From Escherichia coli (GTDB lineage: Bacteria; Pseudomonadota; Gammaproteobacteria; Enterobacterales; Enterobacteriaceae), in NCBI RefSeq assembly GCF_009931435.1, contig NZ_CP043414.1: 64,000 bases of DNA; one strand, given 5' to 3'. The notes beneath the pieces were generated by a model, which saw only the letters and a list, made by a program, of their open reading frames with translations, searched no databases and was not told where the DNA came from. Every line of letters begins with the position of its first letter. Position 1 is the stretch's first letter. Below are positions 17,046 through 42,692 of the stretch, one piece after another. The position numbers and the translations under genes are program-made.

Positions 17046-19124
17046 TTAAACCAATGCCGATTTATCAATCCCCAGTCGTTTCATCCGTGATAGCAGTGTG
17101 GTGCGTTTTAGTCCCAGACGTTGCGCCGCGCCTTTCGGCCCGGCAACCACGCCGTTAGTCTCTTTTAATACACGCACAATTAGCTGATATTCATCTTCGC
17201 CCTCCTGAGCGACGACCGTTGCAGTCGGCGGCGTTTTAGGTTCCGGTAAAGCAATATCAGGCAATGACAGCTGCAGCACGTTGCCACGTGTCAGCAATAC
17301 CGCGCGCTCAATGACGTTTTCCAGCTCGCGTACGTTACCCGGCCACTCCATATTGCTCAACGCGCGCAACGTTTCGGCAGGAATGCTGTCGATATTACGC
17401 CCCAGACGGCGGGCAATTTTAAAAGTAAAGGCTTTTGCCAGCAGCGGAATATCTTCCGGACGCTCGCGTAGTGGCGGCAGGTGGATCGGGAATACGTTCA
17501 GGCGATAATAGAGATCGCTACGGAACTCGCGGTCGGCAACCATTTTTTTCAGATCGCGGTTAGTCGCGGCAATTAAACGCACGTCCGTCTGTATAATTTT
17601 ATTACTGCCGAGACGTTCAAACTCCTGTTCCTGTAATACACGCAGCAACTTCGGTTGTAACTCCAGCGGCATATCACCCACTTCATCGAGGAACAGGGAG
17701 CTTTTATCCGCCAGTTCAAAACGACCGATACGCTGGGCGCTGGCTCCGGTAAACGCACCACGCTCATGACCAAACAGATCGCTTTCCAACAATCCGGCAG
17801 GCATCGCCGCGCAGTTCATTTTTACCATGCGGCGATTATTACGCCCACTGAGATTATGGATCGCGCGGGCAATCAGCTCTTTACCAGTGCCAGTTTCACC
17901 GAGAATCAGCACGGTACTGTCACTTTGTGCCACCATTTCAACTTGTTTAAGCACGCTGTACATGGCTTCACTGCGACCAATAATCTCGCCAAATTCACTA
18001 TCAACATTGTTGAGCTGCTCGGTCAGGGCGAGATTTTCATCAACCAGTCGTTCTTTCAGACGATGAATTTCCTGATAGGCAAGGGCGTTATCGACAGCGA
18101 TTGCCACACGTTCGGCAATCTGGCGCAGTAAATTCAGATTGGTCGTGGTAAACACTTTCTCTTCGCATTGCGCCAGTTTCAGCACGCCCAGCATGGTGTC
18201 GCCAGACATCAGCGGTAACAGGCACAAGGTTTGAATCTGGTTGCCCCAGGTGTCGAACAACATGCGTTCGTAGGGGGCTAAATTATCTCGCTCGTGGAGA
18301 TTAATCAGCAGCATCTCTTTGCTTTTAAACACGCGTTCGGTGAGGGTTCCAGCTTCATCGACTTCGCTCTGTTCGTGAGCGGGATGCTGTTTATCAAGAT
18401 AGTGAGTGGAGTAGATGTTGAGTTTGTTTTTACGGTGGCTGCGTAAGACGATGCTGATATCGTCAATGTCGAAATAGTAATGGATTTCTTTGGCGACTTC
18501 GCTGACCAGTTCGTCCATATCCAGGCGAGAAAGCACCGCGTTGGTGATGGCAACCAGGATGCGGAAGTTATCGCGTTCCCGGCATAACAACTCATAGTCG
18601 ACATTATTGACGACGCGGCTCTGGATTTGTTCGGTGACGACAGAAATGATCTGCGTAAAAGTTTGCAGGCGATTGAACTCTTTTTCACTCCACGGGCGAT
18701 CGTCATAACGAATAAATTCACAGCCACCAAAAATATGCCCTTCCGCCGCCAGTGGCATCAGGCAATAGTGACCAAATTTGGGGTATAGCCCACCAGCGGC
18801 CAGCTGCGGCCAGGTTTCACAAAATTCTTCGTAACTGCAATGTAGTGTATCAGGGCGCGACAAAATGCTGCGCACTGGACCGTGTGCCAGAACAGTTTCG
18901 TCTTCATAATTTATGGGGGTGTCTTTTTCACGCGACGCGTAATAAGACGCACGTTGAGTCTGCGCTTGCCACAACACAATAGCTGCATTGTCGGCGAGCG
19001 CAGAACGCTTTACCAATTGCGAAAGAGCCTCACACAGCGAGGCCAGATCGGGCTGCTGCAATAGTGTCCGAGTGATGTCGAACAACCCTTGTTGTCCGAG
19101 ATCACTCATCGGTGTATATGACAT
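17046..19124 (-). CDS. fhlA: formate hydrogenlyase transcriptional activator FhlA (sigma54-dependent)
   Basis: Start taken at MSYTPMSDLGQQ; central AAA+ sigma54-interaction domain ([14 protein letters not shown]), C-terminal HTH. Confidence 0.95.
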   Translation of the reverse strand: MSYTPMSDLGQQGLFDITRTLLQQPDLASLCEALSQLVKRSALADNAAIVLWQAQTQRASYYASREKDTPINYEDETVLAHGPVRSILSRPDTLHCSYEEFCETWPQLAAGGLYPKFGHYCLMPLAAEGHIFGGCEFIRYDDRPWSEKEFNRLQTFTQIISVVTEQIQSRVVNNVDYELLCRERDNFRILVAITNAVLSRLDMDELVSEVAKEIHYYFDIDDISIVLRSHRKNKLNIYSTHYLDKQHPAHEQSEVDEAGTLTERVFKSKEMLLINLHERDNLAPYERMLFDTWGNQIQTLCLLPLMSGDTMLGVLKLAQCEEKVFTTTNLNLLRQIAERVAIAVDNALAYQEIHRLKERLVDENLALTEQLNNVDSEFGEIIGRSEAMYSVLKQVEMVAQSDSTVLILGETGTGKELIARAIHNLSGRNNRRMVKMNCAAMPAGLLESDLFGHERGAFTGASAQRIGRFELADKSSLFLDEVGDMPLELQPKLLRVLQEQEFERLGSNKIIQTDVRLIAATNRDLKKMVADREFRSDLYYRLNVFPIHLPPLRERPEDIPLLAKAFTFKIARRLGRNIDSIPAETLRALSNMEWPGNVRELENVIERAVLLTRGNVLQLSLPDIALPEPKTPPTATVVAQEGEDEYQLIVRVLKETNGVVAGPKGAAQRLGLKRTTLLSRMKRLGIDKSALV

Positions 19125-20208: not shown

Positions 20209-21326
20209 GCTTCACTCTCCTGCTGACGATACTGATACCACGCGGCGCATGCTCCCTCGGAGGAAACCATCAGCGCGCCAAACGCGGTTTGAGGATTACA
20301 GGTGTTACCAAACAGCGGGCATTGATGCGGCTTACATTTGCCCGTCAATACTTCGCCACAACGTGCGCGCGGGTCATCGCAAACCTGCTGCGGTGCCGGG
20401 CGGAAATGCGCTTCGGCGTCAAATCGTTGATAGTCTGGCGTCAGGTGTACACCAGAAGATTCAATCACGCCTAAGCCGCGCCATTCGCTGTCGCCGTTGA
20501 CGCAGAAGACATCCGCAATCGCCTGTTGCGCCAGCAGGTTACCGGCATCCGGCACCACGCGCCGATACTGATTTTCTACCTTGCTGTGGGCCGCTATTTT
20601 CTGCTCCACCAGCATGACCACACCTTGTAGTAGATCAAGCGGTTCGAATCCAGCAACCACCAGAGGACGATGAAAATCACTGGCGATAAAATTATAGGCG
20701 TCGGTGCCGATAACCATACTGACGTGGCCCGGCGCGAGGAACGCATCGATACCGTTATCCGGCTGTTCCAGCAAACTGCGTAGCGTTGGGATCAGCGTAA
20801 TATGCTGGCAGAAAAAGTAAAAATTTTGCACATCGCGGGCTTTCGCCTGTTGCAGAGTGATGGCCGTCGTCGGCATGGTGGTTTCAAACCCTAAGCCGAA
20901 GAACACCACTTTACGAGTTGGATTCTCCTGCGCCAGTTTCAACGCATCCATTGGCGAGTAAACGATGCGAACATCGGCACCGCGCGCTTTTGCCTGTAAC
21001 AGCGACCCTTGTTTCCCTGGTACGCGCATGGCGTCGCCAAAGGTACAGAAGATGACTTCCGGATGGCTGGCAATCTCCACGCAGGTGTCGATTCTTCCCA
21101 TCGGCAGTACACATACCGGGCAACCCGGACCGTGGATAAACTCAACGTTTTCCGGCAGTAACTGGTCGAGGCCGAATTTAAAAATGGCGTGGGTATGACC
21201 GCCGCACACTTCCATAATCCGCAGAGGGCGTTCAGCGGTGTAAGAGAGATGTGAAGCACGTTCGCGTAGATGCTCAATTAACTGCATCACCTGTTCCGGC
21301 GCGCGATATTCATCAACAAAACGCAT
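20205..21326 (-). CDS. hypD: hydrogenase maturation factor HypD
   Basis: 373-aa ORF with conserved Cys motifs; overlaps hypE start. Confidence 0.9.
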   Translation of the reverse strand: MRFVDEYRAPEQVMQLIEHLRERASHLSYTAERPLRIMEVCGGHTHAIFKFGLDQLLPENVEFIHGPGCPVCVLPMGRIDTCVEIASHPEVIFCTFGDAMRVPGKQGSLLQAKARGADVRIVYSPMDALKLAQENPTRKVVFFGLGFETTMPTTAITLQQAKARDVQNFYFFCQHITLIPTLRSLLEQPDNGIDAFLAPGHVSMVIGTDAYNFIASDFHRPLVVAGFEPLDLLQGVVMLVEQKIAAHSKVENQYRRVVPDAGNLLAQQAIADVFCVNGDSEWRGLGVIESSGVHLTPDYQRFDAEAHFRPAPQQVCDDPRARCGEVLTGKCKPHQCPLFGNTCNPQTAFGALMVSSEGACAAWYQYRQQESEA

Positions 21327-21598
21327 TATTTTTCCTCGCCATACAACAGCGCGCCGACATCCGGCTCAACGTCAAACATGTTTTGTAAGGCGTCGAGGGT
21401 GTCGCGCGCTTCGGCTTCATTAATTACGCTCATGGCAAAGCCAACGTGAACCAGTACCCACTGGCCCACGCGTGGCTGACCGTTTTCATCGCAGCTGCCG
21501 ACTAACGTTAGGTCGACGTCGCGTTGAATACCGCAGACGTCGACTTTCGCCTGGTTGCCGTCAATGGTGCGGATCTGGCCGGGAACGCCTATGCACAT
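21326..21598 (-). CDS. hypC: hydrogenase maturation chaperone HypC
   Basis: Start taken at MCIGVPGQ, the HypC/HupF N-terminal signature. Confidence 0.9.
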
Positions 21599-22461
21599 CG
21601 CTGTGTCTCCAGCCAGTTCAGCCACTGGTCCATCCCTTCGCCGCTGGTGGCGGAAATAAGGATGATTTCAATTTCTGGATTGACTTCGCGGGCGCAGGCG
21701 ATGCACTTCTCAACGTCGAAATTGAGATACGGCAGCAGGTCAACTTTGTTGAGCAGCATCAGCGAGGCGGCGGCAAACATATGTGGATATTTCAGCGGTT
21801 TGTCTTCACCTTCGGTAACGGAAAGCACCGCCACTTTGTGTTTTTCACCGAGATCGAAGCTCGCCGGACATACGAGGTTGCCAACGTTTTCGATAAACAG
21901 AATACCGTTATCGTCCAGTGGCAGGCGCGGTGCGGCGTCGGCAATCATCTGTGCGTCAAGATGGCAGCCTTTACCGGTATTCACCTGAATCGCTGGTGTG
22001 CCGGTAGCGCGAATGCGTGCGGCATCGTTCACGGTTTGCTGGTCACCTTCAATAACTGCGCACGGAACGCTGTCTTTCAGGCGCATCAAGGTTTCCGTCA
22101 GCAGGGTGGTTTTACCGGAACCAGGGCTGGAAACCAGGTTGAGCACCAGTTGCTTACGGGCAGCAAAGCGCGCGCGGTTGCGTTCAGCCAGACGGTTGTT
22201 TTTGTCCAGCACGTCAATTTCGACTTCCAGCATCCGACGCTGGCTCATGCCCGGCGCGTGAGTGCCCGCTTCGCCATGACCGTAATGCAGGTCGCCTTCT
22301 TCAGTCTGGCTGGGGGTAAATTCAGGCGCTTTAATGCCGGTGATTTTCATCTTCGGGCGTGCCGCCGGGGCAAATGGCGCGCTACGAAACGCGGAATGAG
22401 GGTTATGTTCATCACCCTCGATATACAGGTTGCCTTCACCGCAACCGCATGTTGTACACAT
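21589..22461 (-). CDS. hypB: hydrogenase nickel incorporation GTPase HypB
   Basis: 290-aa ORF with N-terminal CxxCGC metal site, His-rich stretch and GTPase P-loop. Confidence 0.9.
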
Positions 22462-22464
22462 CGC

Positions 22465-22815
22465 TCACTCCTGGTCTATTTCTATCCGCCGAATCTGTAA
22501 ACCGTCGTCTGCCACAATCTGTAGCATGTCACCATGACACTGTGGACAGCGGCGGACGCGCTGGGTCAGTAGCGTCACATATTGTTGGCATGTTTCGCAC
22601 CAGCATTCGGCCTCTTGTTCTTCGAGGTGCAGTTTACAACCTTCCGCTACGCTGCCGCGGCAAACCAGATCAAAACAAAAGGCAAGAGAGCTGGTTTCGA
22701 CACAAGAAAATGCGCCAATTTTGAGCCAGACCCCAGTTACGCGTTTTGCACCGTGTTTTGCGGCCTGCTGTTCGATCAATTCCAGTGCCCGTTGGCAGAG
22801 GGTTATTTCGTGCAT
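22465..22815 (-). CDS. hypA: hydrogenase nickel insertion protein HypA
   Basis: Start at MHEITLCQ; zinc-finger CxxC…CxxC. Confidence 0.9.
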   Translation of the reverse strand: MHEITLCQRALELIEQQAAKHGAKRVTGVWLKIGAFSCVETSSLAFCFDLVCRGSVAEGCKLHLEEQEAECWCETCQQYVTLLTQRVRRCPQCHGDMLQIVADDGLQIRRIEIDQE

Positions 22816-22845
22816 ATCGCCTCCCATTAACTATTGCCAGCTACA

Positions 22846-22861
22846 AGCAATAATTGTGCCA
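22846..22861 (-). promoter_or_regulatory. sigma54 (-24/-12) promoter for hypA
   Basis: Minus strand reads TGGCACAATTATTGCT (GG-N10-GC spacing) just upstream of hypA. Confidence 0.6.
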
Positions 22862-22974
22862 GTGTTGATTATCCCTAAAGTGAATAATGTCGATGATGTC
22901 GAAATGACACGTCGACACGGCGACGAAATTCACCAGAATCCTAAAAATCTCTTTTATAACAATAAATTAAAAGT

Positions 22975-22990
22975 TGGCACAAAAAATGCT
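22975..22990 (+). promoter_or_regulatory. sigma54 (-24/-12) promoter for the hyc operon
   Basis: TGGCACAAAAAATGCT with GG-N10-GC spacing about 40 bp upstream of hycA; FhlA-type TGTCGAAATGACA motifs lie upstream (about 22880-22935). Confidence 0.6.
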
Positions 22991-23026
22991 TAAAGCTGGC
23001 ATCTCTGTTAAACGGGTAACCTGACA

Positions 23027-23488
23027 ATGACTATTTGGGAAATAAGCGAGAAAGCCGATTACATCGCACAGCGGCATCGTCGCCTACAGGACCAGTGGCA
23101 TCTCTACTGCAATTCGCTGGTTCAGGGGATCACGTTATCGAAAGCGCGCCTGCATCACGCCATGAGCTGTGCGCCAGACAAAGAACTCTGTTTCGTCCTT
23201 TTTGAACATTTTCGCATTTACGTCACCCTGGCGGATGGCTTTAACAGCCACACCATCGAGTATTACGTCGAAACGAAAGAGGGTGAAGAAAAACAGCGGA
23301 TTGCGCAGGCACAATTGAGCATTGACGGAATGATAGATGGCAAGGTCAACATCCGCGATCGCGAACAGGTACTGGAACACTATCTCGAAAAAATCGCTGG
23401 CGTTTACGACAGCTTATACACCGCCATTGAAAACAATGTACCGGTGAATTTAAGCCAACTGGTAAAGGGACAAAGCCCGGCGGCATGA
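23027..23488 (+). CDS. hycA: formate hydrogenlyase regulatory protein HycA
   Basis: 153-aa ORF, first gene of hyc operon, divergent from hypA. Confidence 0.9.
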   Translation: MTIWEISEKADYIAQRHRRLQDQWHLYCNSLVQGITLSKARLHHAMSCAPDKELCFVLFEHFRIYVTLADGFNSHTIEYYVETKEGEEKQRIAQAQLSIDGMIDGKVNIRDREQVLEHYLEKIAGVYDSLYTAIENNVPVNLSQLVKGQSPAA

Positions 23489-23612
23489 GCTGAGGCTTTG
23501 CCCGTTTTGCAGGCGTTACGCCTGTTTGGGGATGGGCGTGTCGATGAGTGTCGAAAATGACATTTCATCGGCATGTTTTCGTCAAAAATGACAATCACCT
23601 GAGGAATGCCTG

Positions 23613-24224
23613 GTGAATCGTTTTGTAATTGCTGACTCCACACTCTGTATCGGCTGCCACACCTGTGAGGCCGCCTGTTCAGAGACGCATCGCCAGCACG
23701 GCCTGCAATCAATGCCGCGCCTGCGAGTGATGCTAAATGAAAAAGAATCTGCGCCGCAGCTCTGTCACCACTGTGAAGATGCACCCTGTGCGGTGGTCTG
23801 CCCGGTTAACGCTATCACCCGCGTTGATGGGGCAGTGCAGCTGAATGAAAGCCTGTGCGTAAGCTGCAAACTGTGCGGCATCGCCTGCCCGTTTGGCGCA
23901 ATCGAATTTTCCGGCAGCCGTCCGCTGGATATTCCGGCAAACGCCAATACCCCGAAAGCACCACCGGCACCGCCTGCTCCGGCGCGTGTCAGCACGTTGC
24001 TTGACTGGGTGCCGGGTATTCGCGCGATCGCCGTCAAATGTGACCTCTGTAGCTTTGATGAACAAGGTCCAGCCTGCGTGCGGATGTGCCCAACCAAAGC
24101 CCTGCATCTGGTGGATAACACCGATATCGCCCGCGTCAGCAAGCGTAAGCGTGAGCTGACCTTTAACACGGACTTTGGCGATCTCACCTTGTTTCAGCAG
24201 GCTCAAAGTGGAGAGGCTAAATGA
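23613..24224 (+). CDS. hycB: formate hydrogenlyase 4Fe-4S ferredoxin subunit HycB
   Basis: 203-aa ORF with multiple CxxCxxCxxxCP clusters. Confidence 0.92.
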   Translation: MNRFVIADSTLCIGCHTCEAACSETHRQHGLQSMPRLRVMLNEKESAPQLCHHCEDAPCAVVCPVNAITRVDGAVQLNESLCVSCKLCGIACPFGAIEFSGSRPLDIPANANTPKAPPAPPAPARVSTLLDWVPGIRAIAVKCDLCSFDEQGPACVRMCPTKALHLVDNTDIARVSKRKRELTFNTDFGDLTLFQQAQSGEAK

Positions 24225-35840: not shown

Positions 35841-36851
35841 ATGACGACGATGCTGGAAGTGGCGAAGCGCGCCGGGGTTTCAAAAGCGACCGTTTCCCGC
35901 GTGCTTTCAGGTAATGGCTACGTCAGCCAGGAAACTAAAGATCGCGTGTTTCAGGCGGTGGAAGAGAGCGGCTACCGCCCAAATTTGCTGGCGCGCAATC
36001 TGTCAGCGAAGAGTACCCAGACGCTGGGGCTGGTAGTGACCAACACGCTTTACCACGGCATTTATTTTAGTGAATTACTGTTTCATACCGCGAGAATGGC
36101 GGAAGAGAAAGGGCGTCAGCTGCTATTGGCAGATGGCAAACATAGCGCCGAAGAAGAACGCCAGGCGATTCAGTATCTACTGGATCTGCGCTGCGACGCC
36201 ATTATGATTTACCCGCGCTTTTTAAGCGTGGATGAGATTGATGACATCATTGATGCACACAATCAGCCGATAATGGTGCTCAATCGCCGCCTGCGCAAAA
36301 ACAGTAGCCATAGCGTCTGGTGCGATCATAAACAGACCAGCTTTAACGCCGTGGCAGAGTTGATAAACGCCGGACATCAGGAGATTGCTTTCCTTACCGG
36401 TTCGATGGATTCCCCCACCAGCATTGAACGCCTTGCCGGATATAAAGACGCGCTGGCGCAGCATGGTATTGCACTCAATGAAAAACTTATCGCTAACGGT
36501 AAATGGACGCCTGCCAGCGGGGCCGAAGGGGTAGAAACGTTGCTCGAACGTGGGGCTAAATTTAGCGCGTTAGTTGCCAGTAACGACGATATGGCGATAG
36601 GTGCGATGAAAGCGTTGCATGACCGTGGTGTAGCGGTGCCGGAGCAAGTATCGGTTATTGGATTTGATGATATCGCAATTGCCCCCTACACCGTTCCGGC
36701 GCTCTCCAGCGTAAAAATTCCGGTGACTGAGATGATTCAGGAAATAATTGGGCGGCTGATATTTATGCTCGATGGTGGTGCTTACACACCGCCGAAAACC
36801 TTCAGCGGAAAACTAATCCGCCGCGACTCACTCATTGCTCTTTCGCGATAA
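35841..36851 (+). CDS. ascG: LacI-family repressor of the asc operon
   Basis: Start at MTTMLEVAKRAGVSKATVSRV (HTH); divergent from ascF. Confidence 0.92.
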   Translation: MTTMLEVAKRAGVSKATVSRVLSGNGYVSQETKDRVFQAVEESGYRPNLLARNLSAKSTQTLGLVVTNTLYHGIYFSELLFHTARMAEEKGRQLLLADGKHSAEEERQAIQYLLDLRCDAIMIYPRFLSVDEIDDIIDAHNQPIMVLNRRLRKNSSHSVWCDHKQTSFNAVAELINAGHQEIAFLTGSMDSPTSIERLAGYKDALAQHGIALNEKLIANGKWTPASGAEGVETLLERGAKFSALVASNDDMAIGAMKALHDRGVAVPEQVSVIGFDDIAIAPYTVPALSSVKIPVTEMIQEIIGRLIFMLDGGAYTPPKTFSGKLIRRDSLIALSR

Positions 36852-36999
36852 ACATTGTCATCACATGTCATCGTCACTAGTGTCGATGACATCGTTTTTT
36901 CTGCACTGCAGAATTTAATTTCTTTAAATAACAATCAATTAAAAGTTGGCATGATTTGTGAATGTATCGGCGCATTAACTGTCATTGCTGGAGAATTTG

Positions 37000-42674: not shown

Positions 42675-42692
42675 TTGCAGATTGCGTGCCAG
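42675..42692 (-). promoter_or_regulatory. sigma54 (-24/-12) promoter of norVW
   Basis: Minus strand reads CTGGCACGCAATCTGCAA (GG-N10-GC). Confidence 0.7.

Follow-up and report, generated by a model that had tools for sequence, protein, structure and literature searches.

Since the 1990s, the hyp and hyc promoters of Escherichia coli have belonged to textbook knowledge, as have their activator and their enhancer, and papers from the Boeck laboratory, cited second hand, are said to report an FhlA footprint and formate-dependent activation in K-12. Two further K-12 loci, fdhF (CGTCAAAACTGACG) and hyfA (GCGACACGGGTGTCGAA; also served by HyfR), use the same half-site vocabulary, each upstream of a sigma-54 promoter, but differ from hyp and hyc in being separate, unidirectional loci. 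Back-to-back sigma-54 sites within one spacer, as at hyp/hyc, also occur at zraP/zraSR of K-12 (OS38/OS39), which differs in activator (ZraR), signal and genes and is not known to have a remote second enhancer. The motif centers of that pair lie 154 bp apart (PMC4591121, Table 1). For the hyp/hyc region of K-12, the hypA site OS28 returned a sigma-54 ChIP-seq score of 201, tied with glmY (200) as the highest intergenic site, as well as the top PSSM score, and the hycA site OS27 reached 91 in ChIP-seq; the same table (Bonocora et al. 2015, PMC4591121, Table 1) marks the two promoters as “experimentally confirmed in EcoCyc”. The hycA/hypA spacer was also recovered as a target of the sigma-54 holoenzyme by genomic SELEX (gSELEX). 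In Salmonella Typhimurium, the hycA and hypA sites, 114 bp apart, were bound in sigma-54 ChIP-chip and both operons were listed as sigma-54- and FhlA-dependent, their up-regulation through sigma-54 being assigned to FhlA (Samuels et al. 2013, PMC3844500). Both hyc and hyp have IHF among their listed activators (PMC2636881).

Here we analyzed a stretch of 64,000 nucleotides (“the window”) from an E. coli chromosome; the 1.1 kb around the region of interest matched 5425 of 5426 complete E. coli genomes, most closely that of strain RMDEC465 (99.5% identity). The sequence bears out a control region that is already known, the divergent sigma-54 region of hyp and hyc in the formate regulon, and shows it to be strongly conserved. 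Compared with K-12, the window has the same 17-mers at both promoters (CTGGCACAATTATTGCT and TTGGCACAAAAAATGCT, letter-identical to OS28 and OS27, respectively), the same 114-bp spacing, predicted leaders of 26 nt (hyc) and 20 nt (hyp), 54-bp enhancer block and flanking genes, and differs by 10 substitutions across the 211-bp spacer (95.3% identity). The divergent pair 114 bp apart is shared with Salmonella Typhimurium (PMC3844500), where the promoter spacers (TGGCATGGAAAATGCT and TGGCATAAATATTGCT) and the right part of the enhancer differ from the window.

The divergent sigma-54 promoters and their conservation

According to the annotation of matching genomes, gene order in the region is mutS, ygbA, fhlA, hypEDCBA, hycABCDEFGHI, ascBFG, hydN-hypF and norWV. 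Positions 22816 to 23026 are exactly the 211-bp spacer between hypA (ATG at 22815, minus strand) and hycA (ATG at 23027, plus strand), and the gene of FhlA is present in the same genome as the FhlA-type enhancers. Genes and promoter elements are as follows:

17046-19124, minus strand: fhlA, the cognate sigma-54 enhancer-binding activator and last gene of the hyp operon, stop included (NCBIfam NF011958 over its full length, 1542.8 bits against a cut-off of 830; annotation)
22465-22815, minus strand: hypA coding sequence, 116 amino acids, stop included, first in hypABCDE-fhlA (open reading frame; NCBIfam NF002979 over its full length, 241.8 bits; RefSeq annotation concordant)
22819-22825, minus strand: hypA ribosome-binding site GGAGGC (GCCTCC invariant in 81 species)
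22835, minus strand: predicted hyp transcription start from promoter geometry, 12 nt past the C of the −12 element and 20 nt before the hypA ATG
22846-22862, minus strand: hyp sigma-54 promoter CTGGCACAATTATTGCT, with GG at 22860-22859 and GC at 22848-22847 (top sigma-54 matrix match; K-12 OS28)
22861-22846, minus strand: hyp −24/−12 string as quoted in the earlier note, TGGCACAATTATTGCT
22974-22990, plus strand: hyc sigma-54 promoter TTGGCACAAAAAATGCT, with GG at 22976-22977 and GC at 22988-22989 (third-best sigma-54 match; K-12 OS27)
22975-22990, plus strand: hyc −24/−12 string as quoted in the earlier note, TGGCACAAAAAATGCT
23001, plus strand: predicted hyc transcription start from promoter geometry, 26 nt before the hycA ATG
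23027-23488, plus strand: hycA, formate hydrogenlyase regulator (FhlA anti-activator) and first hyc gene (NCBIfam NF007567, 298.9 bits; homologues found)

An earlier note on this DNA had read divergent sigma-54 promoters for hyp and hyc, with FhlA-type inverted repeats, in this spacer, and the four strings it quoted all lie between 22816 and 23026 at the places that it named. Measured against the consensus TGGCAC-N5-TTGCW, in which GG and GC are exactly 10 nt apart, the hyp site (TGGCAC-AATTA-TTGCT) is perfect and the hyc site (TGGCAC-AAAAA-ATGCT) has a single mismatch at a non-critical T; the pattern TGGCACN5WTGCW occurs in the 64 kb only at these two sites (0.29 expected). With a published sigma-54 matrix of 186 promoters (PMC7658346, Table 2), the hyp site scored 18.8 bits, the top of the 64 kb (per-position P = 1 × 10−7), and the hyc site 15.2 bits, rank 3 (per-position P = 3 × 10−6). 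A second, independent matrix derived from ChIP-seq data on 38 other E. coli sites (hycA, hypA, norV and hydN excluded) gave the hyp site 21.1 bits, exceeding the maximum from 200 random 64-kb sequences, and both matrices agreed on rank, placing hyp first, the known norV promoter second and hyc third. The norV promoter (CTGGCACGCAATCTGCA, 42676-42692, minus strand), being the second-best sigma-54 match of the window, provided an internal positive control. A spacer of 211 bp would hold such a site on the required strand by chance with a probability of 1.9 × 10−5 for hyp and 6.2 × 10−4 for hyc, and the joint chance of the divergent pair, as the product of the two, is ∼10−8. Matrix ranks of 1 and 3 and identity to OS28 and OS27 thus bear out the reading of two divergent sigma-54 promoters.

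In the window, the motif ends 30 nt (hyp) and 36 nt (hyc) before the start codon, and 114 bp separate TGGCA from TGGCA in the divergent pair. Both transcription starts were predicted by the rule of PMC4591121 (19 nt downstream of the motif center), and the resulting leaders of 20 nt (hyp) and 26 nt (hyc) equal the K-12 values in Table 1 of that paper.

To follow the region across species, 14 diverse HycA proteins were aligned and the locus was taken from 80 species-representative genomes of at least 15 Enterobacteriaceae genera (81 with the window). The divergent sigma-54 pair was found in all 81 hypA-hycA spacers (188 to 223 bp), the hyc motif ending 34 to 37 nt before the hycA ATG and the hyp motif 27 to 34 nt (42 in one species) before the hypA ATG. 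Invariant across the 81 species were the GG and GC of both promoters and, at hyc, also TGGCA and TGC. In the spacer alignment, freely varying sequence is interrupted by islands of conservation: the ribosome-binding site of hypA, both elements (−12 and −24) of the hyp promoter, the core of the intergenic enhancer (UAS-1), an A/T-rich site of the form AATCAAnnnnTTAAAA that abuts the hyc −24 element, both elements (−24 and −12) of the hyc promoter and the hyc leader.

Two further motifs in and around the promoters were rejected as functional elements. A 27-nt inverted repeat spans both promoters and a downstream AGCTGGCA; it is incidental, its sequence beyond the −12 elements being only 20 to 60% conserved outside Escherichia. 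Within hycA, a sigma-54-like motif (TGGCATCTCTACTGCA, 23096-23111, plus strand) scored ∼12 to 14 bits, and at least 10 bits in 57 of the 81 species; coding constraint at the invariant codons W24, Y27 and C28 accounts for this conservation. The text of PMC4591121 does not contain this motif and names hycA once, in the row of the intergenic site.

Two FhlA-type enhancers and an IHF-like site

Upstream elements were located as follows, UAS denoting the FhlA-type enhancers:

22880-22933, no strand: UAS-1, an FhlA-type enhancer block with overall dyad symmetry (invariant in E. coli haplotypes; bracketing repeat; half-site density)
22888-22901, plus strand: TGTCGATGATGTCG, the best FhlA-matrix match of the spacer
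22897-22909, no strand: TGTCGAAATGACA, a conserved palindromic core, quoted in the earlier note as its first repeat tgtcgaaatgaca (11 of 13 positions at least 80% conserved in 81 species)
22911-22924, no strand: GTCGACACGGCGAC, quoted in the earlier note as its second repeat gtcgacacggcgac (present; invariant within E. coli)
22957-22969, plus strand: IHF-like site TAACAATAAATTA, ending 5 nt before the hyc −24 element (12 of 13 matches to WATCAANNNNTTR)
23538-23593, no strand: UAS-2, a second FhlA-type enhancer in the hycA-hycB spacer, made up of GTGTCGATGAGTGTCGAAAATGACA (23538-23562) and TTTTCGTCAAAAATGACA (23576-23593) (FhlA matrix; conservation)

The 54 bp of UAS-1 are identical in seven E. 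coli haplotypes in which both flanks vary, and a 13-nt inverted repeat (22880-22892 and 22921-22933) brackets the block. Nowhere in the window are YGTCR/YGACR half-sites packed more densely than here between the promoters (six in 50 bp; the region upstream of hydN ties for second), although half-site density alone is only moderately significant, as 3 of 100 random 64-kb sequences reach six per 50 bp. The published FhlA matrix (13 characterized sites, consensus TGWC-RAWRAT-GWCA; PMC7658346) places its two best matches of the 64 kb in UAS-2 (TGTCGAAAATGACA, 23549-23562; 16.36 bits, the maximum possible score) and UAS-1 (TGTCGATGATGTCG; 15.4 bits), against a null maximum that averages 13.1 bits, in a test that is partly circular given that the 13 sites probably include the K-12 versions of both. 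Across the alignment of 81 spacers, the conserved core of UAS-1 is ATGTCGATGATGTCGAAATGACACGTC (22887-22913). The two inverted repeats read earlier as FhlA-type fared differently: the first (tgtcgaaatgaca) is a deeply conserved core, with a spacer of 5 nt compared to 6 nt in the published consensus, whereas the second (gtcgacacggcgac) is poorly conserved past its first GTC, the remainder being 30 to 70% conserved across genera. The second repeat resembles the sequence GCGACACGGGTGTCGAA upstream of hyfA. Clusters of the form TGTCR/CGTCA...TGACR are also found upstream of the sigma-54 promoters of hydN (in the window) and of fdhF and hyfA (in K-12). A 16-mer FhlA consensus, CATTTCGTACGAAATG, quoted second hand, is attributed to Leonhartsberger et al. 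2000. Compared by eye with the 16-mer as quoted, the spacer holds only half-sites (CGAAATG at 22900-22906 and ACGAAATT at 22923-22930), and the best match found by hand (11 of 16 positions) falls within UAS-2.

Both sub-elements of UAS-2 are near-invariant in the 81 species, the conservation of its core motifs equals or exceeds that of UAS-1, and its left half equals UAS-1 plus one extra base per spacer. Relative to the predicted starts, it lies at about +555 (hyc) and −720 (hyp). A matrix scan of the hycA-hycB spacer found no sigma-54 motif (best score, 8.3 bits), and UAS-2 must therefore act at a distance. The idea that one enhancer serves both promoters retains UAS-1, which does lie between them, but is probably too simple in view of UAS-2, which lies outside the hypA-hycA spacer.

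No exact match to the IHF consensus WATCAANNNNTTR was found in the spacer of the window, the best being the 12 of 13 positions of TAACAATAAATTA. An IHF-like site with at most one mismatch, 4 to 6 nt before the hyc TGGCA, was present in 56 of 81 species and an exact one in 24 of 81. This position-fixed IHF-like site beside the hyc promoter went without mention in the earlier note. A search of hypA and the spacer for FNR boxes (TTGATN4ATCAA, at most two mismatches) yielded no credible site, the lone spacer match being AT-rich and overlapping the IHF-like site.

Elsewhere in the window, the promoter region of hydN-hypF (36850-36962) resembles the hyc side. Its sigma-54 promoter TTGGCATGATTTGTGAA follows a ATAACAATnAATTAAAAGTTGGCA module, hyc and hydN having in common the module ATAACAAT[A/C]AATTAAAAGTTGGCA, and a cluster of TGTCA/TGTCG half-sites lies ∼70 bp upstream, as at hyc. 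In contrast to hyp/hyc, there is a single promoter with a weaker −12 element (GTGAA) and another arrangement of half-sites. On these sequence likenesses, the promoter regions of hydN and hyc resemble two versions of a single layout.

Distances within the spacer varied between genera in discrete steps. TGGCA-to-TGGCA distances were 114 to 116 bp in most genera, 102 to 103 bp in the Citrobacter freundii group, Kosakonia and one Enterobacter, and 92 bp in the Pseudescherichia group. The UAS-1 core lay 44 to 46 or 55 to 57 bp from the T of the hyp −24 element (46 bp in the window) and 46, 57 to 60 or 68 to 69 bp from the T of the hyc −24 element (68 bp in the window). Core-to-promoter distances thus shift by ∼10 to 11 bp, near whole helical turns, on both sides, a result that comprises only about five independent indel events and to which alignment register could contribute, since the enhancer repeats are themselves ∼9 to 10 bp apart. 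The pattern is no more than suggestive of a face-of-helix constraint between UAS-1 and both promoters. It is conceivable, albeit rather unlikely, that UAS-1 keeps helical phase with the two promoters simultaneously, in which case the classical scheme, with one enhancer for each promoter, would be incomplete: one FhlA assembly could contact either polymerase from the same DNA face and UAS-2 could cooperate via a larger loop.

Strain variation and neighboring features

The exact spacer haplotype of the window is rare, with only four genomes (∼4 of 5426) at least 99% identical. None of the 10 differences from K-12 touches a promoter element, the enhancer block or the core of the IHF-like site; they form two clusters (22877-22879 and 22933-22941) plus a single position (22955). 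The patches read AAA for GCG and CCAGAATCC for TCTTTAGCT, plus the one lone base. Because the differences are clustered, recombination patches are suggested rather than independent point mutations. The second patch creates a CAGAAT that is also present at the equivalent spot upstream of hydN.

Several other observations concern the neighborhood of the promoters. In E. coli FDAARGOS_1288, an IS5 element sits between the predicted hyp start and the hypA ribosome-binding site (equivalent to ∼22826/22827) and splits hypA from its sigma-54 promoter. The closest relative of the window, RMDEC465, carries hycB as an annotated frameshifted pseudogene (21214-21736 in the coordinates of that locus); the hycB open reading frame is intact in the window (23613-24224, 203 amino acids). 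Just past the hycA stop codon, a perfect hairpin (CAGGCG-TTA-CGCCTG, followed by TTTGGGG; 23510-23524) lies within an insert of which Escherichia, Salmonella and Citrobacter have differing versions and which other genera lack; this hairpin could be a weak hycA-hycB attenuator. The hyc 5′ leader TCTCTGTTAAACGGGTAACCTGAC (22996-23025) is 60 to 100% conserved across genera and has no obvious strong Shine-Dalgarno sequence. No Rfam family was found between 22600 and 23700, hyc leader included (scan at E ≤ 1). A terminator-like match (22925-22910) coincides with the second inverted repeat of the earlier note and was rejected as a chance match (1 found versus 1.2 expected).

Mechanism and enhancer wiring

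Taken as a whole, the region is, with high confidence, the shared control region of the divergent operons hypABCDE-fhlA and hycABCDEFGHI, with two sigma-54 promoters, FhlA-type enhancers and probable IHF-assisted looping. Underpinning this model are the promoter motifs, with their statistics and conservation, the clustered half-sites and the IHF-like site, together with the assigned genes and the exact agreement with K-12 sequences that sigma-54 occupies in vivo; the start sites, occupancy by FhlA and IHF in this strain and the pairing of enhancers with promoters are its predicted parts. Sigma-54 RNA polymerase would wait in closed complexes on the two back-to-back −24/−12 promoters, whose TGGCA elements are 114 bp apart, while formate-bound FhlA would occupy the clusters of TGTCG/TGACA half-sites, namely UAS-1 (22880-22933) between the promoters and UAS-2 (23538-23593) ∼550 bp downstream of the hyc start. 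DNA looping would then put the FhlA ATPase domain on the polymerase and ATP hydrolysis would open the promoter, the loop on the hyc side presumably being aided by an IHF bend immediately upstream of the −24 element. Because fhlA ends the hyp operon and the anti-activator gene hycA opens the hyc operon, the region is wired for both positive and negative feedback. No contradictions to this core model were found. The proposal that both operons are under FhlA-dependent control is likewise supported, by the Salmonella data (PMC3844500), by the attribution of hypA expression to FhlA (PMC4591121) and by the place of fhlA at the end of the hyp operon.

The wiring of enhancers to promoters allows two main readings. 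We lean slightly towards a division of labor in which UAS-1 and the IHF bend act on hyc only and UAS-2, ∼720 bp upstream of the predicted hyp start, acts on hyp; the single shared enhancer of the earlier note would then be wrong for hyp. Such an assignment is reportedly the one made by the Boeck laboratory (Lutz 1990, Schlensog 1994 and Hopper 1994), where UAS-1 is said to serve hyc with IHF and UAS-2 to be the hyp enhancer. It is consistent with the maximum FhlA-matrix score of UAS-2, its two near-invariant cores and the lack of a nearby sigma-54 promoter, and with the geometry of UAS-1, whose core is only 46 bp from the T of the hyp −24 element, short for looping without a bend, compared to 68 bp on the hyc side, where the IHF-like site lies between. 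However, the UAS-1 core is phased to hyp too (44 to 46 or 55 to 57 bp), which would be unexpected if hyp ignored UAS-1, and the center of UAS-1 at about −70 from the predicted hyp start is not unusual; at many sigma-54 promoters, the UAS lies ∼70 to 150 bp upstream of the promoter (PMC3844500).

Alternatively, UAS-1 alone may act as a shared bidirectional enhancer of hyp and hyc, with UAS-2 otherwise employed (e.g., in raising the local concentration of FhlA, in cooperative looping with UAS-1 or in boosting hyc from downstream), which we regard as possible but less than probable. Against this, UAS-2 hardly varies and holds a fixed position ahead of hycB, which points to a strong role in its own right, and the Boeck laboratory work reportedly gives hyp to UAS-2. 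Nonetheless, UAS-1 sits between the two promoters, with its phase to each kept across genera, and the attribution of hypA expression to FhlA in PMC4591121 names no remote site. On sequence grounds, the 46-bp distance to hyp and the very existence of UAS-2 would favor the division of labor, and phasing to both promoters would favor some role for UAS-1 at hyp. That the motifs arose by chance in an AT-rich spacer, with ordinary sigma-70 promoters driving the operons, is hardly credible and is refuted by the matrix statistics (joint chance of the pair as above), by GG and GC at fixed, invariant positions in 81 species and by in vivo occupancy of the identical K-12 sequences by sigma-54; two sigma-70-like hexamer pairs do occur between 22600 and 23700, but at chance level (1.3 ± 1.3 expected) and both aimed at hycA.

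Only two items go further than the textbook picture, namely the rule of spacing in whole turns and how very highly UAS-2 is conserved, and newness is claimed for neither. The cross-species footprint condenses the functional elements into a short map that can be checked (a pair of promoters, a pair of enhancers, one IHF-like site and whole-turn spacing), and the locus serves as a positive control in that a tool-free reading of raw sequence located a real regulatory region to the base. This region sets the output of formate hydrogenlyase and of hydrogenase maturation in enteric bacteria during fermentation, and control of hyp and hyc is relevant to acid stress, gut colonization and biohydrogen engineering.
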